Shown here one piece after another: positions 3,041 through 10,881 of a stretch of 10,881 bases of DNA (positions within the stretch are counted from its first letter, which is position 1; every line of letters begins with the position of its first letter). The position numbers and the translations under genes were made by a program. The stretch comes from Candidatus Heimdallarchaeota archaeon (GTDB lineage: Archaea; Asgardarchaeota; Heimdallarchaeia; Heimdallarchaeales; Heimdallarchaeaceae). Under the pieces are notes generated by a model. That model made no database searches and had not been told where the DNA came from. It saw only the letters and a list, made by a program, of their open reading frames with translations. The stretch is taken from the NCBI GenBank assembly GCA_021399395.1, contig JAAFKJ010000128.1, forward strand, positions 1-10,881, given 5' to 3'.

Positions 3041-3105
3041 AATAGAACATATTATAACTACTAATATTTTCTATCAACTTAACTATTCCAAACGTTGCAG
3101 GTGAT
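3041..3105 (+). promoter_or_regulatory. Putative promoter (AATAGAA + TATTATAA 3050-3057) and archaeal Shine-Dalgarno AGGTGAT (3099-3105) for the transporter operon
   Basis: Motifs read directly from the sequence. GGTGA is the typical archaeal SD core and lies 5 nt before an in-frame ATA at 3111. Confidence 0.5.
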
Positions 3106-3110
3106 ATATT

Positions 3111-4577
3111 ATACTACTAGTCAGTCAGATTATAATTTCTTTGTGTTTTCTAGCCGTTGTTGTGCTACTTTTCACAAATAAATTGAATAGGGCAATAGCA
3201 GCTATAACTGCTGCAATTATCACTTACTTTGTTTTAGTTTTTTCTGAAGGTAAAAGTTTCAGTGTAATAGTTGATTTACTTTTTGGAACACCTGATGATC
3301 AGTTTGTGAATCTCCACTCGCTTATGCTAATTGTAGGTATGATGTTTATAGTTCAAATCTCTGATGAAGCAGGTCTTTTCCAATTTCTTGGAGTCTTAGC
3401 AATAAAAATTACTAAAGGTAAACCATTAGCTTTGATGTCAGTAATGTGTACTTTGTCTGTCATCTTTTCGGCTTTGATAAATAACTTACTCACAGTAATG
3501 ATACTAATCCCTCTAACGATAACAATCTCGCGTATACTCAACATCGACCCAACACCGTACATCATTACTGAAGCAGTAATGGTCAACGTGGGTGGAACAT
3601 TCTTTTCAATTTCATCTATACCAAACATACTTATTGTCACAGAATCACTTTCTACAGACTCTCCAATAAGCTTCAATCAATTCTTTCTCAATGTTGGACT
3701 CTTCTCCTTACTGATTGCTGGAGTCACAATTGGATTCTTCATCTTTCTTTATAGAGCAGAACTAAGAGAACCAAGAAAAAGGACAGTAACAACTTTGGAA
3801 GAATTTAATCCTTGGAACTTTGTACAAAGTCGAAGACTTCTATTTGCATCGATGGGGTCATTAATCCTCTTGATAGTACTTCTTGTATCAATCAATTCTC
3901 CAACTATAACACCTGACATCATTGCACTTTCTATAGCGATGGTACTTACTATATTCAGTTCATTCAATGGAGTGAAACCGAGAGATATTATGAATAAGTT
4001 TGATGTTGAACTCCTGTTATATCTAATGGGTATTTTCGTTGTTGCAGGAGGTTTAGAGGAAGTTGGTATTATAGATGTAATAGGGATAGCTTTGAGCAAC
4101 ATAGGAGGTAGCAATCCCGTTTTTCAAATGATTTTCATTGTCTGGATATCGGCTTTTCTTAGTTCATTAATTGATAATATACCAATAACGAAGGTACTCA
4201 TACCCATTGTTGGTAGTATGTCAGCAGCCAACAATTTCTCATTTTATGCTTTGTCTTTTGGAGCTAATTGGGGAGATAATCTAACACCTTTAGGAGATAA
4301 TATTCTAGTACTAAATATTGCTGAACAACATAATCGTCCAGTTAAGATGAAAACATTCTGGAAAGTAGGTTTCACCACAACAATAATTCAACTTATTCTA
4401 GTTACTCTATACTTCACCTTCTTCTCTAAAGAAACATATCTAATAGGCTTAATCCTAGGTTTAGTGATAATTACATCAGTTGGAATAGTTTTTATAATTT
4501 CAAAGTATGGTAATGAACAGGTAAAATCATACTTGAACAAAGCAATCAACAAATTCAGATCAATTGTAATAGGTTAA
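3111..4577 (+). CDS. ArsB/NhaD/P-protein-like (CitMHS/SLC13, IT superfamily) secondary transporter. Start ATA 3111 proposed; the track gives TTG 3141.
   Basis: About 12-14 hydrophobic segments with two-fold internal repeat motifs: LIVGMMFIV..SDEAGLF, SALINNLLTVMILIP, NVGG...IPNILI, LYLMGIFVVAGGLEEVGII, SSLIDNIP, ALSFGANWG. The frame is open back to TGA 3102-3104. Confidence 0.88.
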   Translation: MLLVSQIIISLCFLAVVVLLFTNKLNRAIAAITAAIITYFVLVFSEGKSFSVIVDLLFGTPDDQFVNLHSLMLIVGMMFIVQISDEAGLFQFLGVLAIKITKGKPLALMSVMCTLSVIFSALINNLLTVMILIPLTITISRILNIDPTPYIITEAVMVNVGGTFFSISSIPNILIVTESLSTDSPISFNQFFLNVGLFSLLIAGVTIGFFIFLYRAELREPRKRTVTTLEEFNPWNFVQSRRLLFASMGSLILLIVLLVSINSPTITPDIIALSIAMVLTIFSSFNGVKPRDIMNKFDVELLLYLMGIFVVAGGLEEVGIIDVIGIALSNIGGSNPVFQMIFIVWISAFLSSLIDNIPITKVLIPIVGSMSAANNFSFYALSFGANWGDNLTPLGDNILVLNIAEQHNRPVKMKTFWKVGFTTTIIQLILVTLYFTFFSKETYLIGLILGLVIITSVGIVFIISKYGNEQVKSYLNKAINKFRSIVIG

Positions 4578-4578
4578 T

Positions 4579-6273
4579 GTGAAAAAAATGGTAATGAAAA
4601 CAATAGAAAGAATCAAAAGAGCTCTCCCTGAAGTGGAGCACATAGTCATGTTTTATAACGATGGAACAGTCTATCAAACAACTTTTGAACAATTCGAAGA
4701 ATCAGTCAATATTCCAAAAGTTGGTGAAGATTTCTCAAAGGTTCTTTCAACCATACGAGATTTGTATGATTTATCTAATTATAAATTCAAAGGGTATAAT
4801 CAGTTACTCTTTGACACAGATGACATTGATATTCTCATCATCAAAATTGGTGAAGATACTAATTTAGCTCTTTTCTTCAGAAAAACTTTGGTAAAGGATG
4901 AACTCAAAATCGATTCTGTTCGAAGATATATAGCGAAAATTGGTAAACTAATCGATATAGGTCAGATAGATCTTATTGGCCAAGACATTAGAACAGCAGA
5001 AAAAGCACTTAAAACTCTTTATGAGGAGTTAGAAGAGAAGCTGGAAAAACAGAAACAACTTCATATCAAACTGGGTGCTTCTACTGACGATCTTAAGGAT
5101 TTTGAAAAAATCACCAAAGACATTGAGGAATTAACAACAAACATAGAAATTGCTGAACACGAGATAGACATGAAGCAAGAGGAGATCACTATTCTGGATG
5201 AGAAAATTACTTCTGAAGAGGGAAGGTTAGAACTTGTTAAGAAGGAATTGAGACTTAAGAGAACAAATGTTAAGGATTTCGAAAATAGAATAAAGGATCG
5301 TGAAGAAAGAAAAGCAGCTCTTGAAGACAAACCAGATGAGGAGAGAGAAGAAAGCAAAATCACCGAGCTTTCCAAGGAGATTGAAGAAATCAGAGAGAAT
5401 CTTGATTCTGAGAAAATTGATGTCGAAAGTAATAGTGAACAAATGACTCTTCTTAAGGTAAAATTGGAAGAAGATAAACAAAGGTTGGAAGAAAGTAATT
5501 CAGATAAAATAAGAAAAGAAGAACACATGCAAGAATTGTATAAAGATCTTGAAGAAAAGATGAGTAGGGAACAATCCCACCTAGAAGTTGTAGGAATGAA
5601 AAAAGATATCGATAAACTCTCAAGCATTGAGGAAGAAATCAAAGAATTGAACACACAGATCACTTCAACAAAACAGAGGTTAGAAAACAAAAATCAAGAA
5701 ATCAAGGACATGCAAGATAAGATAAAAGACATCGACAAACAGATTGAAGATTTGGAAGATAATATTCAAGATAATCTTAAAGAGATAACCAAACTTCAAG
5801 AACAGATGGAAAAAGACAATAAAGAGATTGCTGACCTAAGAAGAGAACTGGCAACTGAAGATGATGATAAGAAACGAAAGAAAATAGAGAAAGAGATTGA
5901 AAAGTTAGAAGCTGATGTTAACTACTGCGTAGAATGTATGGAAGTAGATACAGCAAAAATGGAGAAAAACAAAGAAAATCTCAAAGAACTTTCTAAGAAA
6001 ATGAAAGAAGAAAAGAAATCTTTAGAAAGAGCTCAAAAAGAATTAGACCTCAAAGATCAGCAATTAGAGGGTTTGTACAAAGAACTAGAAGCTGAGTTAG
6101 AAATACAGAAAACCCTACTTAAAGGCGTAGACAAAGAAGAAGAGCTTCAAGGAGCAAGCAAAGTATCCAAGGAAATTGCTGAAATAGAGAACCAAATCAG
6201 TAAAGTCAAATCTGAGATAGCTACAAGAACTGCAGATCTTGAAGAGCTGAAAGAGAAATTTGAAGAAATTTAG
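4579..6273 (+). CDS. Roadblock/LC7 (MglB/LAMTOR-like) domain protein with a long C-terminal coiled coil
   Basis: aa ~6-126 show an alpha-beta-beta-alpha-beta-beta-beta-alpha pattern (PEVEHIVMFYNDGTVYQT; helix; YNQLLFDTDDIDILIIKIGEDTNLALFF; helix) typical of roadblock folds. aa ~130-564 are E/K-rich heptads. No Walker A and no TM segment. It begins 1 nt after the transporter stop; alternative starts are ATG 4588 or 4594. Confidence 0.75.
   Translation: MKKMVMKTIERIKRALPEVEHIVMFYNDGTVYQTTFEQFEESVNIPKVGEDFSKVLSTIRDLYDLSNYKFKGYNQLLFDTDDIDILIIKIGEDTNLALFFRKTLVKDELKIDSVRRYIAKIGKLIDIGQIDLIGQDIRTAEKALKTLYEELEEKLEKQKQLHIKLGASTDDLKDFEKITKDIEELTTNIEIAEHEIDMKQEEITILDEKITSEEGRLELVKKELRLKRTNVKDFENRIKDREERKAALEDKPDEEREESKITELSKEIEEIRENLDSEKIDVESNSEQMTLLKVKLEEDKQRLEESNSDKIRKEEHMQELYKDLEEKMSREQSHLEVVGMKKDIDKLSSIEEEIKELNTQITSTKQRLENKNQEIKDMQDKIKDIDKQIEDLEDNIQDNLKEITKLQEQMEKDNKEIADLRRELATEDDDKKRKKIEKEIEKLEADVNYCVECMEVDTAKMEKNKENLKELSKKMKEEKKSLERAQKELDLKDQQLEGLYKELEAELEIQKTLLKGVDKEEELQGASKVSKEIAEIENQISKVKSEIATRTADLEELKEKFEEI
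5017..6270 (+). repeat. Protein-level internal repeat (about 175 aa, x2.4) in the coiled coil
   Basis: LYEELEEK (aa147), LYKDLEEK (aa320) and LYKELEAE (aa499) are spaced 173 and 179 aa apart. Each is followed by a Gly-containing break and then I/V-x-K/E-D/E-I-x-E-L/I. Confidence 0.7.
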
Positions 6274-6343
6274 TCTCACAAATGTCTTAACTTTGTAAAA
6301 AACAAACCAATATAACACTGGAGTCATATTGTAGAAATAGAAT

Positions 6344-7465
6344 ATGAAGACCAAACCTGTAGTTGTATTTTCAATTTTATCAATAGGAATTATCGTTACT
6401 TTAGCTGTAACTATTCCTATGATGACTCAAGAAGAGAGTAGGGTACAATTTATTCACATAACTTCGGATGAGGAATTTGTAAACTATAATCTTCCAGGTT
6501 CTGGTTCAATTGAAGATCCCTATATTATCGAATCATTTAATCTAGGATTCGAAGAAAAAAATATCAAGGATTACTCGCCCCTGTTATATCTCACAAACAT
6601 CACAAAACATGTAATTATACGAAACAATTTGTTCAATGGGAGTCACATAGCAATTCTAATTGATGAAGTACAGAGTAGTTCAGTTTTGATCGAGGATAAC
6701 TATTTCATATCACAGGATCAATGTGTAAACGGGATTTGTTTCAATAGTTTCTATGGAATAAAAATTGTCGATTCAAACACTATTGTTATTCGAGACAATG
6801 AATTTCAAGAGAGTAATTATGAAGGGTATATCTATGGTATATTCTTCGAAAGATGCGAAAATTTAGAGATAATTGGAAACAAGATAAGCTCATTCTATGC
6901 AATCTATGCGCTGGAATCTTTCTATTTCACAATCGAGAATAATTACTATTATGAATCAGTTGATATTTATTTTGAACAATGCTCCTATTTTGATATTAAG
7001 AACAATATTCATGATTATATCCACCGGTTCAAGGTAAGATATTCTAGTTTCATGAATTTTGAAAACAATATAGTCTTAGGTTACAATGATAGTTTTGGAG
7101 TGATTTTGGAACAAAGCATTGCAATGGACATAATTAACAATACTTTCTTCCAAAATGTAGTTGGTGTAAGTCTTATCAATACACACGAGATCAGAATATT
7201 AAACAATTTTTTCGAAACTTGTACAGGTTATGCAATTGAACTCTTGGACGGTTCCAGTAGCAATATTATTCAGCTAAATGGTTTTGTGAATAATAATCTA
7301 AATTCAGCAACAGAGGTACAAGCATTGGATAACGGCTTTTTTAATTCCTGGAGCAATGAATTAACAGAGAAAGGTAATTATTGGTCGAATATTGGAACAA
7401 GATTAGTGTATGATATCGATGGGGAAGCGAAAGCAAGGGATTACTACCCTCTAACTGAATTTTAA
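6344..7465 (+). CDS. N-terminally membrane-anchored NosD/right-handed beta-helix protein (paralog of the gene at 1..1178)
   Basis: N-terminal TM/signal VVVFSILSIGIIVTLAVTIPM, cap IHITSDEEFVNYNLPGSGSIEDPYIIE, beta-helix coils (IIRNNLF, IRDNEF, IINNTF, ILNNFF), and C-cap QALDNG..NSW...GNYWSN...YDIDG...DYYPL. Confidence 0.88.
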   Translation: MKTKPVVVFSILSIGIIVTLAVTIPMMTQEESRVQFIHITSDEEFVNYNLPGSGSIEDPYIIESFNLGFEEKNIKDYSPLLYLTNITKHVIIRNNLFNGSHIAILIDEVQSSSVLIEDNYFISQDQCVNGICFNSFYGIKIVDSNTIVIRDNEFQESNYEGYIYGIFFERCENLEIIGNKISSFYAIYALESFYFTIENNYYYESVDIYFEQCSYFDIKNNIHDYIHRFKVRYSSFMNFENNIVLGYNDSFGVILEQSIAMDIINNTFFQNVVGVSLINTHEIRILNNFFETCTGYAIELLDGSSSNIIQLNGFVNNNLNSATEVQALDNGFFNSWSNELTEKGNYWSNIGTRLVYDIDGEAKARDYYPLTEF

Positions 7466-7918: not shown

Positions 7919-10881
7919 ATGGGCAGCAAGAAAACAACGCTTATAGTATTTGGTTTGCTTATAATTCTGTTTAGTAGCAGTAGTTTTATCTCTAAGGCAG
8001 AATCTAAAACATCAGACGAAAATCAAGATTACGCTTTAAATTTAGATCTTTCAAACGTTATTTTCCAAATTGAATGGATTTATCCTCTAGAATGGTGCTC
8101 ACAAACACCAACCATAATTGACATTAACTTAGACGGTACTCAAGAAATTCTTCTACCAGGCTACTGTATAGATAGTGATGGCGAACTCATTTGGTATAAA
8201 TCAAGTTTTGCTACAGTAGCCCAATCAACTATTTGTTATGCGGATGTAGACAATGATAATTCTCTGGAAATCATCATGGGTTTACCAGGAGCGATACGCT
8301 GTATTAATCACGATGGATCATTTGAATGGAAATATGAAAGAGTAGGAGACAGTTCATTATTCAAAACTCCTTGTATTGCAGATGTTGATGGAGATTCAAA
8401 TTTTGAGATCATCAGTAGCACTGATTGGGATGGCTTGTTCTGTATCTCTCATGGTGGGAACCTGCAATGGCATCTGGAATTTGAGGAGATAGGCAAAACT
8501 GGTGAGCCAGCTGTTGCAGACATTAATGGTGATGGTACAACAGAGATAATCATCACTCATGGTAAGAAACTATTTTGCATAGACGGTCAAGGGAATATTA
8601 TTTGGGAAACAGAATTTAGCAACTACTTAACAAGTTGTTTAGGTGTTTCGAATTTTGATATTATAACAACCAATTTAGAAATGATTGTTACTACAGACAC
8701 CCATTTACATTGTGTAAATAACCTTGGAATGATTCTCTGGTCCAGTCCTATTGGTTATGGGAATTATGATAACCCAATAATTGTAGATATTGATTCTAAT
8801 GGATTTATGGACATTGTAATGTGCTCAGATACTGGAGTAGTTTACTGTTTCAGTAGTGCAGGTACATTATGGTGGGAAACAAATGTTGAGGAGACACTTC
8901 TTGGAACCCCATCTGTCATAGATTTCAATTGCGATGGATTCCTGGAGATCATTGTAGGCTCCAGAAGTAATCATATAATTGTCCTGGATTGTTTAGGAAA
9001 TATACTCATCTCATATGATATGATTATGTCAGCAAGAACCCCTTTGATGATAGCAGATCTAGATGGGAATGATAGATTTGAAATTTTAGCTGTTTGTGAA
9101 GATGATTATCTATATTGTTGGGAGCTATTTGGGATTGCCATGTCGGGAGATCAAAGGATTCTAGCTTTTAATGGTGGTGTATCTAGAACTAGAGCTTTGG
9201 ATAGCGATGGAGATTATATTGATGACACTACTGAATTAGTAATGCAGAGTGATGGAGCGAAAAGGGATACAGATGGCGATCAGATAATTGATGGAGTTGA
9301 ACTGTATAACTTTGGTACAAGTTTGACATCAAACGACACGGATAGCGATGGTATTGATGACAAAACTGAGATTTATGTGTATGAAACGAGTCCTTTTACG
9401 AACGATACAGATGAAGATCAATTGAGTGATTTTGAGGAAATTAATACATACCATACCGATCCTCTAAATTTTGATTCAGACGGAGATTCCATGCCAGATA
9501 ACTGGGAAATCTCTGTCAATTTAGATCCTAACTACTATGATAAATACGCCGATCCAGATGATGATGATCTTTACAATTATAATGAGTATTTATTGAATCT
9601 TAACCCTCTCTCAAATGATACCGATAATGACTGTATACCTGACAAATGGGAAGTAGACATGTCCTTAGATCCTTTGGTTAATGATTCCTATAATGACCCT
9701 GATGCTGATAATCTAACCAACTTAGTGGAATACACTTATCGAACCAACCCCCTTTGCAATGATACAGATGGCGATTTATTATCAGATTACGATGAAATTT
9801 ATATTTATCCAACCAATCCACGTTTGAGTGATTCGGATTTTGATGGACTTACTGATTACGAGGAGATTATTATATATGGAACGAGTCCTATCCTTGTAGA
9901 CACAGACGGGGATCTAATCTACGATTGGTGGGAAATACTTCATGGACTTAATCCATTTGAAGACGATAGCCAAGAAGACTGGGATAACGACACGCTCAAT
10001 AATTTCGAGGAGTATGTTTATGGTACTTCACCATTGAATAACGACACAGATAGCGATACCCTTCCTGATTACTATGAGGTTCTTACAGGATTAAATCCTA
10101 ATTTGAATGACACCGCTCTAGATCCCGATTATGACGGTTTAACAAATTTAGAGGAATATATCTACAACACTAACCCACTATATTTTGATAGTGACTATGA
10201 TAGACTATCTGACGGAATTGAAGTTAATTATTATGGTACAAACCCCAATAGTAAAGATAGTGATAATGATGGGATGAGTGACAGTTATGAGGTTAATTGG
10301 TATCTTAATCCTCTGGTAGATGATGCCAATTTGGATATGGAGGGAGATGGTTTAATCAACATTAGAGAGTGCGAGAGCAGAACAAATCCTTGGTCGTGGG
10401 ACACAGATTCAGACCTGATGAATGATTATTGGGAAGTAACTTATCACACTAATCCTCTTCTCCCAGACCAAGATTATGACTTAGATTGGGATGATCTTAC
10501 CAATTATGAAGAATATCTTCTTGGTACATTCCCAACAGTTTACGACTCAGACGGAGATCAACTATACGACGGCTATGAAGTTGAAAATAATCTCGATCCT
10601 CTTGTTTATGATAGCCATTTAGACTTGGATGAAGACGGGCTAAGCAATCTAGTAGAATCCTATCATGATACCAACCCTCATGAATTTGACACAGATTTTG
10701 ACGATTTGAATGATTATCTGGAAATTAATGTTTACAATACCGATCCTTTGAGAGAAGACAGTGACAATGACAATATGAACGATGGCTATGAAGTTAGAAT
10801 GGGTTTAAACCCTCTTGCCAAAGATTCTGCAGCAGACCCTGACGGAGATCATCTTACCAATATTCAAGAGATGAGAAATAA
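7919..10881 (+). CDS. Large secreted protein: signal peptide + FG-GAP/VCBS-like 8-bladed beta-propeller + bacterial TSP3-like Ca2+-binding repeats (3' truncated by window)
   Basis: Manual translation from ATG 7919 (MGSKKTTLIVFGLLIILFSSSSFISKA) shows no stop to the window end (987 full codons). An upstream in-frame TAG at 7877-7879 fixes the start. Confidence 0.92.
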   Translation, partial: MGSKKTTLIVFGLLIILFSSSSFISKAESKTSDENQDYALNLDLSNVIFQIEWIYPLEWCSQTPTIIDINLDGTQEILLPGYCIDSDGELIWYKSSFATVAQSTICYADVDNDNSLEIIMGLPGAIRCINHDGSFEWKYERVGDSSLFKTPCIADVDGDSNFEIISSTDWDGLFCISHGGNLQWHLEFEEIGKTGEPAVADINGDGTTEIIITHGKKLFCIDGQGNIIWETEFSNYLTSCLGVSNFDIITTNLEMIVTTDTHLHCVNNLGMILWSSPIGYGNYDNPIIVDIDSNGFMDIVMCSDTGVVYCFSSAGTLWWETNVEETLLGTPSVIDFNCDGFLEIIVGSRSNHIIVLDCLGNILISYDMIMSARTPLMIADLDGNDRFEILAVCEDDYLYCWELFGIAMSGDQRILAFNGGVSRTRALDSDGDYIDDTTELVMQSDGAKRDTDGDQIIDGVELYNFGTSLTSNDTDSDGIDDKTEIYVYETSPFTNDTDEDQLSDFEEINTYHTDPLNFDSDGDSMPDNWEISVNLDPNYYDKYADPDDDDLYNYNEYLLNLNPLSNDTDNDCIPDKWEVDMSLDPLVNDSYNDPDADNLTNLVEYTYRTNPLCNDTDGDLLSDYDEIYIYPTNPRLSDSDFDGLTDYEEIIIYGTSPILVDTDGDLIYDWWEILHGLNPFEDDSQEDWDNDTLNNFEEYVYGTSPLNNDTDSDTLPDYYEVLTGLNPNLNDTALDPDYDGLTNLEEYIYNTNPLYFDSDYDRLSDGIEVNYYGTNPNSKDSDNDGMSDSYEVNWYLNPLVDDANLDMEGDGLINIRECESRTNPWSWDTDSDLMNDYWEVTYHTNPLLPDQDYDLDWDDLTNYEEYLLGTFPTVYDSDGDQLYDGYEVENNLDPLVYDSHLDLDEDGLSNLVESYHDTNPHEFDTDFDDLNDYLEINVYNTDPLREDSDNDNMNDGYEVRMGLNPLAKDSAADPDGDHLTNIQEMRN
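8063..9127 (+). repeat. Eight FG-GAP/VCBS-like propeller blades (P-x-I/V-x-D-I/V-D/N-x-D-G-x-x-E-I-I ... L-x-C-I-x-x-x-G-x-x-x-W)
   Basis: Loops DINLDGTQEI, DVDNDNSLEI, DVDGDSNFEI, DINGDGTTEI, NFDIITTNLEM (degenerate), DIDSNGFMDI, DFNCDGFLEI, DLDGNDRFEI. Confidence 0.85.
9200..10881 (+). repeat. At least 24 tandem D-x-D-x-D-x-x-x-D/N-x-x-E Ca2+-binding (TSP3-like) repeats of 22, 23 or 26 aa
   Basis: Counted by hand from DSDGDYIDDTTE to DPDGDHLTNIQE. Most are followed by a T/L-N/D/S-P motif. Confidence 0.9.

Follow-up and report, generated by a model that had tools for sequence, protein, structure and literature searches.

A Divergent Roadblock-Like Protein Encoded beside an Ion-Transporter-Superfamily Permease in Asgard Archaea

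Introduction

The eukaryote-like signature proteins of Asgard archaea include Roadblock and longin proteins, whose points of attachment in the archaeal cell are mostly unknown. In eukaryotes, the Ragulator complex (LAMTOR1-5) docks on the lysosomal transporter SLC38A9 together with Rag GTPases. The ion-transporter (IT) superfamily has OCA2 as a eukaryotic member, and to our knowledge no Roadblock partner is known for its characterized members. Here we describe a gene pair from a 10,881-nucleotide (nt) stretch of DNA of a Candidatus Heimdallarchaeota archaeon (the window; contig JAAFKJ010000128.1 of assembly GCA_021399395.1), in which a gene for an IT-superfamily secondary transporter is followed by a gene for a protein with a predicted Roadblock-like N-terminal domain (the head) and a long helical extension (the rod).

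According to PMC10933270, Roadblock domains are dimeric platforms, and gene layout rarely reveals the partners of Asgard Roadblock proteins. The layout described here does name a partner, one specific and seemingly Asgard-restricted transporter, from Heimdall to Loki lineages. Transporters of this fold class are reported to be dimeric (title of PMC4621753). A full-text literature search for Roadblock proteins coupled with CitMHS, YbiR, NhaD, SLC13, or ArsB transporters found none, and the passages of PMC10933270 that were searched contain neither “transporter” nor “coiled.” The Roadblock passages of bioRxiv 10.1101/2020.10.19.343400 concern an operon of LAMTOR1-like, Rab-like, and DENN genes, not a transporter pair; the asCOG supplement of that work (Liu et al.), with its 130 clusters of the Roadblock superfamily, may list the present family.

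Results

A Transporter Gene and a Roadblock-Like Gene Are Neighbors across Asgard Lineages

The genome that contributes the window is 2.8 Mb in size and 82% complete, and homologues of the window genes carry the source names Heimdallarchaeota or other Asgard archaea. The two genes and their parts are laid out as follows.

3100 to 3105, + strand: Shine-Dalgarno (SD)-like GGTGAT ahead of the transporter gene, a putative signal by comparison with GGTG(A) in relatives
3111 to 4577, + strand: IT-superfamily (CitMHS/ArsB/NhaD-like) secondary transporter gene, start uncertain (Pfam, similarity to Protein Data Bank [PDB] entries)
4578 to 4587, + strand: spacer of 10 nt between the genes, holding SD-like GTGA at 4579 to 4582
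4588 to 6273, + strand: partner gene for the predicted Roadblock-fold head plus helical rod, 561 amino acids (aa) from ATG 4588
4588 to 4998, + strand: divergent Roadblock-like domain, alpha1-beta1-beta2-alpha2-beta3-beta4-beta5 and the start of alpha3 (AlphaFold2, Foldseek, alignments)
4996 to 5526, + strand: rod repeat R1, residues 140 to 316 in the numbering from GTG 4579 (self-alignment, helix boundaries)
5527 to 6063, + strand: rod repeat R2, residues 317 to 495 (self-alignment, helix boundaries)
6064 to 6270, + strand: partial rod repeat R3, residues 496 to 564 (self-alignment)

Counted once per place, ~75 head genes of eight Asgard families are informative, and ~74 of them have the transporter gene as a neighbor; the sole exception is a broken remnant. 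In the class to which the window belongs, the transporter lies immediately upstream on the same strand at 29 of 30 loci, with the remaining locus truncated where its contig ends. Adjacency was also found at another 30/30 loci (with 5 places already counted among them, and one case of reversed gene order), at 19/19 wider loci from families f1, f5, f15, f17, f18, f19, and f20 (duplicated pairs included), and at 80/80 loci of named Asgard metagenome-assembled genomes (MAGs), a set that overlaps the earlier ones, the underlying species collection being the same; there the transporter is upstream in 78 cases and downstream in 2. A control locus with a canonical Roadblock gene has no transporter. 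The pairing spans Asgard genomes labeled Heimdall-, Hod-, Loki/Promethearchaeota-, Hermod-, Odin-, and Hel-, holds down to ~35% head identity, and is retained by domain-only forms of ~125 to 145 aa. When the open reading frames (ORFs) within ~5 kb were clustered all against all at 20 loci, only the transporter and the head were present at 20/20, with the next best cluster at 4/20. An earlier note on the window, made from its letters alone, had suggested following the gene neighborhood in relatives; the pairing is kept across Asgard lineages, and the adjacency is far beyond chance.

Co-occurrence is strict in the window's class. Among its 83 genomes, an orthologous transporter (E ≤ 1e-144) is present in 34, the same 34 that have a strong head match, while the remaining genomes have only transporter paralogues (E of 1e-47 or worse). 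The pair is patchy within genus g14 (9/22 species), and it is thus gained or lost as a unit. In 400 genomes of the phylum, a transporter match (E ≤ 1e-70) was found in 114 and a head profile match in 153, ~111 of these being strong. Six genomes appeared to have a strong head without a transporter at that threshold. The five examined comprise three contig-end truncations, one frameshifted transporter, and one broken head remnant (G216); the sixth, G172, which lies outside these five, has only part of the head matched, and its contig is short. No intact head gene without the transporter was found. Mean pairwise identity is 0.51 for the head and 0.56 for the transporter, and the two sets of identities correlate (r = 0.79; reached in 0/1000 Mantel permutations), which fits co-inheritance but would also be expected of any two vertically inherited genes.

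Several loci show how the pair varies or decays. The order is inverted, with the head first and the transporter directly after, in the Loki/Promethearchaeota-labeled loci L063/L088 (G264:C55), L159, and L172. The decayed head of L096 (G216:C70:20000-26500; ~3216 to 3647) matches profile positions 68 to 128 only and has a TAG inside the match. At L097 (G266:C2:60400-66900; 3453 to 4771, − strand), the transporter gene beside an intact head is split over two frames, by a frameshift or an assembly error. Two pairs are present at L073 (G129), and a tandem module in a Heimdall family (L081, G005:C31:11250-24927) has three transporter paralogues, 49 to 56% identical to that of the window, and two ~553-aa head-plus-rod genes within 9 kb. 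Locus L140 (DATKTW010000125.1), labeled “Candidatus Nanopelagicaceae bacterium,” carries the Asgard pair with a head of 51% identity, and is probably a misbinned Asgard contig in a bacterial MAG. All genomes that bear the pair are uncultured MAGs, and the sequencing runs listed for window positions 3100 to 6300 are DNA runs of sediment and cold-seep metagenomes only.

The Partner Gene Most Likely Starts 10 nt behind the Transporter Gene

The transporter ORF ends with TAA at 4575 to 4577, and the partner ORF, which ends with TAG at 6271 to 6273, has GTG 4579, ATG 4588, and ATG 4594 in frame. Translation from GTG 4579 would give 564 aa and leave T 4578 as the single nucleotide between the genes. 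Because the conserved start in 29 relatives aligns with ATG 4588, and many of these relatives have no upstream GTG, the partner most likely starts at ATG 4588. A purine-rich GTGA/GGTGA-like motif lies 5 to 7 nt ahead of the ATG in all 29 related loci. The stop assigned in the earlier note stands, and its 1-nt gap most likely becomes a spacer of 10 nt. Across 60 gene pairs, the distance from the transporter stop to the head ATG has a median of 10 nt and is at most 21 nt in 56, with 3 overlaps; it was not measurable for 16 further genes, most of which have no ATG near the start of the profile.

The Head Is Predicted to Have a Roadblock Fold

The head is a globular domain of ~137 aa with motifs that are invariant in its family (LPEVEH, FYNDG, NIPKxG, FDT/FET, and LGExSNxALFF). 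Its homologues include 16 at 64 to 85% identity, with Heimdall and other Asgard archaea as the only source names. An AlphaFold2 model built with 28 homologues has a mean predicted local distance difference test (pLDDT) value of 65.9 and a predicted template modeling (TM) score of 0.61. Its helices (H) and strands (E) run H2-15, E19-26, E31-34, H45-65, E75-79, E83-89, E94-101, and H112-139, that is, in the order alpha-beta-beta-alpha-beta-beta-beta-alpha, with a helix first, unlike longin. A Foldseek search of the PDB with this model gave 109 matches at E ≤ 0.001. The matches listed are without exception Roadblock-type proteins, by themselves or as part of complexes (MglB with and without MglA, Asgard Roadblocks, dynein LC7, and LAMTOR), with E of 3e-6 to 5e-5, TM scores of 0.41 to 0.71, and sequence identities of 7 to 16%.

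The sequence links to Roadblock are weak but consistent. In hhalign, the family aligns with the genome's six canonical Roadblocks at E 7.7e-4 and a probability of 25%, with 79 columns in register. Among the 51 family members, Robl_LC7 (PF03259) is the Pfam family with the largest number of matches, which are weak and subthreshold and occur in 9/51 (best E 0.0013). A 133-aa Asgard protein recovered by the family profile (E 1.2e-10) scores above the Robl_LC7 cutoff (26.6 versus 23 bits). Comparisons with PDB sequences returned only noise, both for the head (phmmer) and for the family profile, the latter from the coiled-coil tails (best SNAP-25, E 0.005). In the genome of the window, eight other genes match Robl_LC7 at E up to 1, six of them above the cutoff, and the head gene is not among them. 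From the predicted fold, we assign the head to the Roadblock superfamily as a divergent member that makes up a separate family with characteristic motifs, in agreement with the N-terminal Roadblock-like domain first proposed for this gene.

The Transporter Belongs to the IT Superfamily

The product of the upstream gene matches the Pfam families CitMHS (PF03600; 156.2 bits, cutoff 31.9) and ArsB (PF02040; 45.2 bits, cutoff 22.2), and among PDB sequences it is similar to ArsB (E 3.4e-8) and NaCT/SLC13A5 (E 2e-4). The initial description as an ArsB/NhaD-type transporter, with a fold other than that of SLC38A9, is thus borne out. Scores against NCBIfam equivalog or subfamily models stay below the cutoffs for ArsB (77.1 versus 457, 69.9 versus 760, and 59.9 versus 415 bits), MamN (98.8 versus 500 bits), and DASS (55 versus 198.6 bits); since the transporter is far under every equivalog cutoff, no substrate can be assigned. 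Among its best 120 relatives, all those that bear a source name come from Asgard archaea, and the labels that relatives carry include “SLC13 family permease,” “YbiR,” and “NhaD/arsenite permease-like.”

In an alignment of 36 orthologues, the hairpin-like motifs SISSIPN and GANWGDNLTPLGDN are invariant, and the basic central loop has a nearly invariant W225-N226. The loop motif E-F-N-x-W-N-F-V was considered as a marker of partner-bearing transporters and discarded, as W-N is also present in the partnerless L089 and L090.

Candidate starts of the gene are ATT 3108 and ATA 3111, both suggested by homology, and TTG 3141, the first canonical start. Coding conservation extends over the ten codons ahead of TTG 3141, and relatives have ATG, ATT, or ATA at the homologous position, 4 to 7 nt after GGTG(A). 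A start at 3108/3111 is therefore plausible, 3141 being the conservative call. The position 3111 given originally is a noncanonical ATA and gains plausibility from the starts and coding conservation of relatives; the lineage may use ATT and ATA as start codons.

The Rod Appears to Be an Elaboration of the Heimdall Family

The rod consists of ~425 aa (21% E, 16% K). It is predicted to form six helices (residues 109-161, 166-246, 255-334, 337-423, 427-512, and 517-560, numbered from ATG 4588), most segments having pLDDT above 90, with breaks about every 88 residues. Smith-Waterman comparison against shuffled sequences resolves the rod into two and a half repeats of ~177 aa that align end to end; the z-scores (R1/R2, 7.1; R2/R3, 7.7; R1/R3, 5.7) are overstated because shuffling destroys the heptad periodicity. 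Repeat R1 comprises two ~80-aa helices with a break at G-A-S-T. A plain BLASTP self-comparison of the rod detected no repeats. By eye, R3 seems to correspond to the ~80-aa tail of short forms in other Asgard families.

When 1.84 billion representative proteins were searched with the family profile, only 71 clusters were recovered at E ≤ 0.001, with lengths of ~120 to 145 aa (head only), ~200 to 300 aa (head and short helical tail), and 561 aa. At the 80 named MAG loci, the ORFs measure ~142 aa (3), 186 to 229 aa (58), 303 aa (1), and 380 to 572 aa (18), the long ones being labeled Heimdallarchaeota, “uncultured archaeon,” or “Promethearchaeati.” In most of the family, the tail is ~80 aa long or missing. 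Judged by these lengths, the long rod is a lineage-specific elaboration of the Heimdall family that lies outside the conserved core. The coiled coil of ~430 aa reported previously is therefore present in this protein, as a helical rod of ~425 aa, and is absent from what the family has in common.

Family and structure searches with the rod gave only generic matches to long coiled coils (Rad50, MukB, SMC, and axonemal proteins). An SMC/Rad50-type ATPase was rejected, as only the coiled-coil parts match (49.6 versus 567 bits for SMC, 21 versus 700 bits for Rad50) and the Foldseek TM scores are mostly 0.06 to 0.3. A SNARE-like protein, made of the head and an ~80-aa coil, was likewise rejected: a set of 10 short forms, scanned up to E 1, gave no match to Pfam SNARE or synaptobrevin families, and SNARE families are not among the 25 most frequent Pfam families of the 51 members. 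For a longin-SNARE in particular, the head starts with a helix, as in Roadblock and not longin, and no hydrophobic C terminus was seen.

Other Genes of the Window

The remaining window genes, assigned by ORF and family scan, are listed below.

1413 to 2264, + strand: alpha/beta hydrolase gene
2332 to 2994, + strand: DUF998 membrane protein gene
6344 to 7465, + strand: NosD-like beta-helix protein gene
7919 to contig end, + strand: large FG-GAP/TSP3-repeat protein gene

Two NosD-like right-handed beta-helix paralogues (1 to 963, − strand, and 6344 to 7465, + strand) flank the region. The locus of the closest relative (L082) has four NosD-like genes; in other families such genes are not conserved with the transporter-head pair. 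The ORF at 7919 to 10879 (+ strand) encodes more than 987 aa, with a signal-like N terminus, FG-GAP/beta-propeller repeats, and, in a long array, D-rich calcium-binding repeats of the bacterial TSP3 type, and runs off the contig end. A Pfam scan of the seven window ORFs of at least 80 aa found no GTPase domain, which bears out, for these ORFs, the initial remark that the window has no GTPase gene.

Discussion

The two genes appear to form a conserved Asgard module and are probably an operon. We lean toward reading the Roadblock protein as an accessory, cytoplasmic subunit of the transporter, that is, a physically bound regulatory or scaffolding partner, because an intact head is never found away from the transporter, its gene follows that of the transporter at a distance of 10 nt, and the gains and losses of the two coincide. 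The head, probably a dimer like other Roadblock proteins, would dock on the cytoplasmic surface of the transporter, for which the conserved central loop and the C-terminal tail are candidate surfaces, and would regulate, stabilize, or position the transporter. By analogy with the dimeric state of Roadblock domains and of transporters of this fold class, a dimer-on-dimer arrangement is plausible. The helical tail would be an accessory part, which duplication may have grown to the ~425-aa rod of the Heimdall family, where it could serve as a dimerization rod, a spacer, or a scaffold. Prediction of a 1:1 complex of transporter and head, run without controls, gave scores of 0.31, 0.44, and 0.30 (median 0.31, next to a mark of 0.32).

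Several points weigh against an accessory subunit. The Roadblock proteins characterized so far (MglB, LAMTOR, and the C-terminal domains of Rag proteins) have small GTPases as their targets and not transporters. Passages of PMC10933270 are consistent with such a role. Since promoters of archaea can be located within the gene upstream, co-transcription is not proven by a short spacer. The head has no Pfam Robl_LC7 match (cutoff 23 bits) even at E up to 10, and its model is only moderately confident, with pLDDT 65.9 for the head modeled by itself and below 50 in the full-length model. In addition, seven genomes (f15, f16, f19, and f21) have a related transporter, 34 to 51% identical, with no head within 2 to 3 kb, and this transporter fold is clearly able to work alone. 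Transporters without a head are thus known, and heads without a transporter are never intact, from which follows a one-way dependence, of the head on the transporter.

That an unrelated coiled-coil gene came to follow the transporter gene fortuitously is extremely improbable, given a pairing that holds in all but one of the informative loci, swapped order included, and the strict co-occurrence in the window's class. Alternatively, the two proteins may be co-expressed from a shared operon for one physiological process without being bound to each other, the rod protein being, for example, a cytoskeletal or membrane-organizing element that depends on the transported ion or metabolite. The generic coiled-coil matches of the rod would fit such a structural filament or tether, as would a tail length that ranges from 0 to ~425 aa between lineages. 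However, the head and not the rod is the conserved part, domain-only forms keep the pairing, and the strict dependence of the head on the transporter, together with the 10-nt coupling, is more typical of the subunits of one complex, and we therefore regard co-expression without binding as unlikely.

A third component is invoked if the head, placed on the transporter, recruits or regulates a small GTPase encoded elsewhere and so couples transport or substrate state to GTPase signaling, functionally like Ragulator on SLC38A9. This GTPase platform would be compatible with an accessory subunit, to which it adds an unlinked partner, and the closest structural matches of the head do include GTPase regulators, namely, MglB (alone and with MglA) and LAMTOR; the genome also has its six canonical Robl_LC7 genes above the Pfam cutoff. 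On the other hand, there is no GTPase gene among the seven scanned window ORFs, no third gene conserved within ~5 kb at 20 loci, and no GTPase domain fused in 51/51 family members; the module has one Roadblock gene, whereas Ragulator has heterodimer sets, and a transporter of another fold than SLC38A9. The missing linkage is weak counterevidence, because in the Asgard strain MK-D1 small GTPase genes are, according to PMC10933270, generally not in operons with Roadblock genes. We consider a GTPase platform improbable on balance, and the Ragulator-SLC38A9-like signaling that the earlier note had raised finds no support in any GTPase gene linked, fused, or conserved nearby. A still bolder form, and a distinctly long shot, is that an Asgard Roadblock platform on a transporter recruits a GTPase encoded elsewhere as a prokaryotic “transceptor,” a functional forerunner of Ragulator/Rag docking; if so, the Heimdall rod would bridge the distance to other cellular structures as a long spacer or tether.

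The accessory-subunit reading thus remains the one we prefer. The head stands for a divergent subfamily of Roadblock proteins whose type of partner is new. In the pair, the attachment of a Roadblock platform to a membrane protein can be studied with two defined proteins, as can any involvement of GTPases. A partner that does no more than tune the transporter would be an accessory subunit of a kind new to the ArsB/CitMHS/SLC13 superfamily. Should it bind a GTPase as well, the pair would bear on the origin of transporter-linked nutrient signaling.

Comparison with Known Systems

The Roadblock/LC7 proteins compared here are MglB (1j3w, 3t1r, 6h5b, and 6izw), Roadblock2 and Roadblock3 of Candidatus Prometheoarchaeum syntrophicum MK-D1 (9jq8 and 9jue), and a Thorarchaeota Roadblock (7f8m). 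The head resembles these prokaryotic and Asgard proteins in its predicted fold and order of elements, including a C-terminal helix as in MglB, with Foldseek E of 3e-6 to 1e-5 and TM scores of 0.5 to 0.7. It differs from them in lacking a Pfam Robl_LC7 match, in having invariant motifs of its own and often a helical tail, and in being encoded by a gene that is tied to a transporter gene and not to a GTPase gene. A layout like that of MglB, a GTPase-activating protein with a cognate MglA-like GTPase gene, was found neither in the seven window ORFs nor as a conserved feature of the 20 loci.

On the transporter side, the window protein is like ArsB, NaCT/SLC13, CitMHS, and NhaD by Pfam matches above the cutoffs and by similarity to the ArsB and NaCT structures, and unlike the characterized members of the superfamily in falling far below the NCBIfam equivalog cutoffs.

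Likeness to Ragulator and SLC38A9 is at most an analogy. The Asgard module has one Roadblock gene against five subunits, no Rag-type GTPase, and a transporter of the IT-superfamily fold. What the two share is that LAMTOR chains (5y3a) are among the listed structural matches of the head, and that a protein of predicted Roadblock fold is linked to a membrane transporter, in the Asgard archaea by the pairing of the genes.

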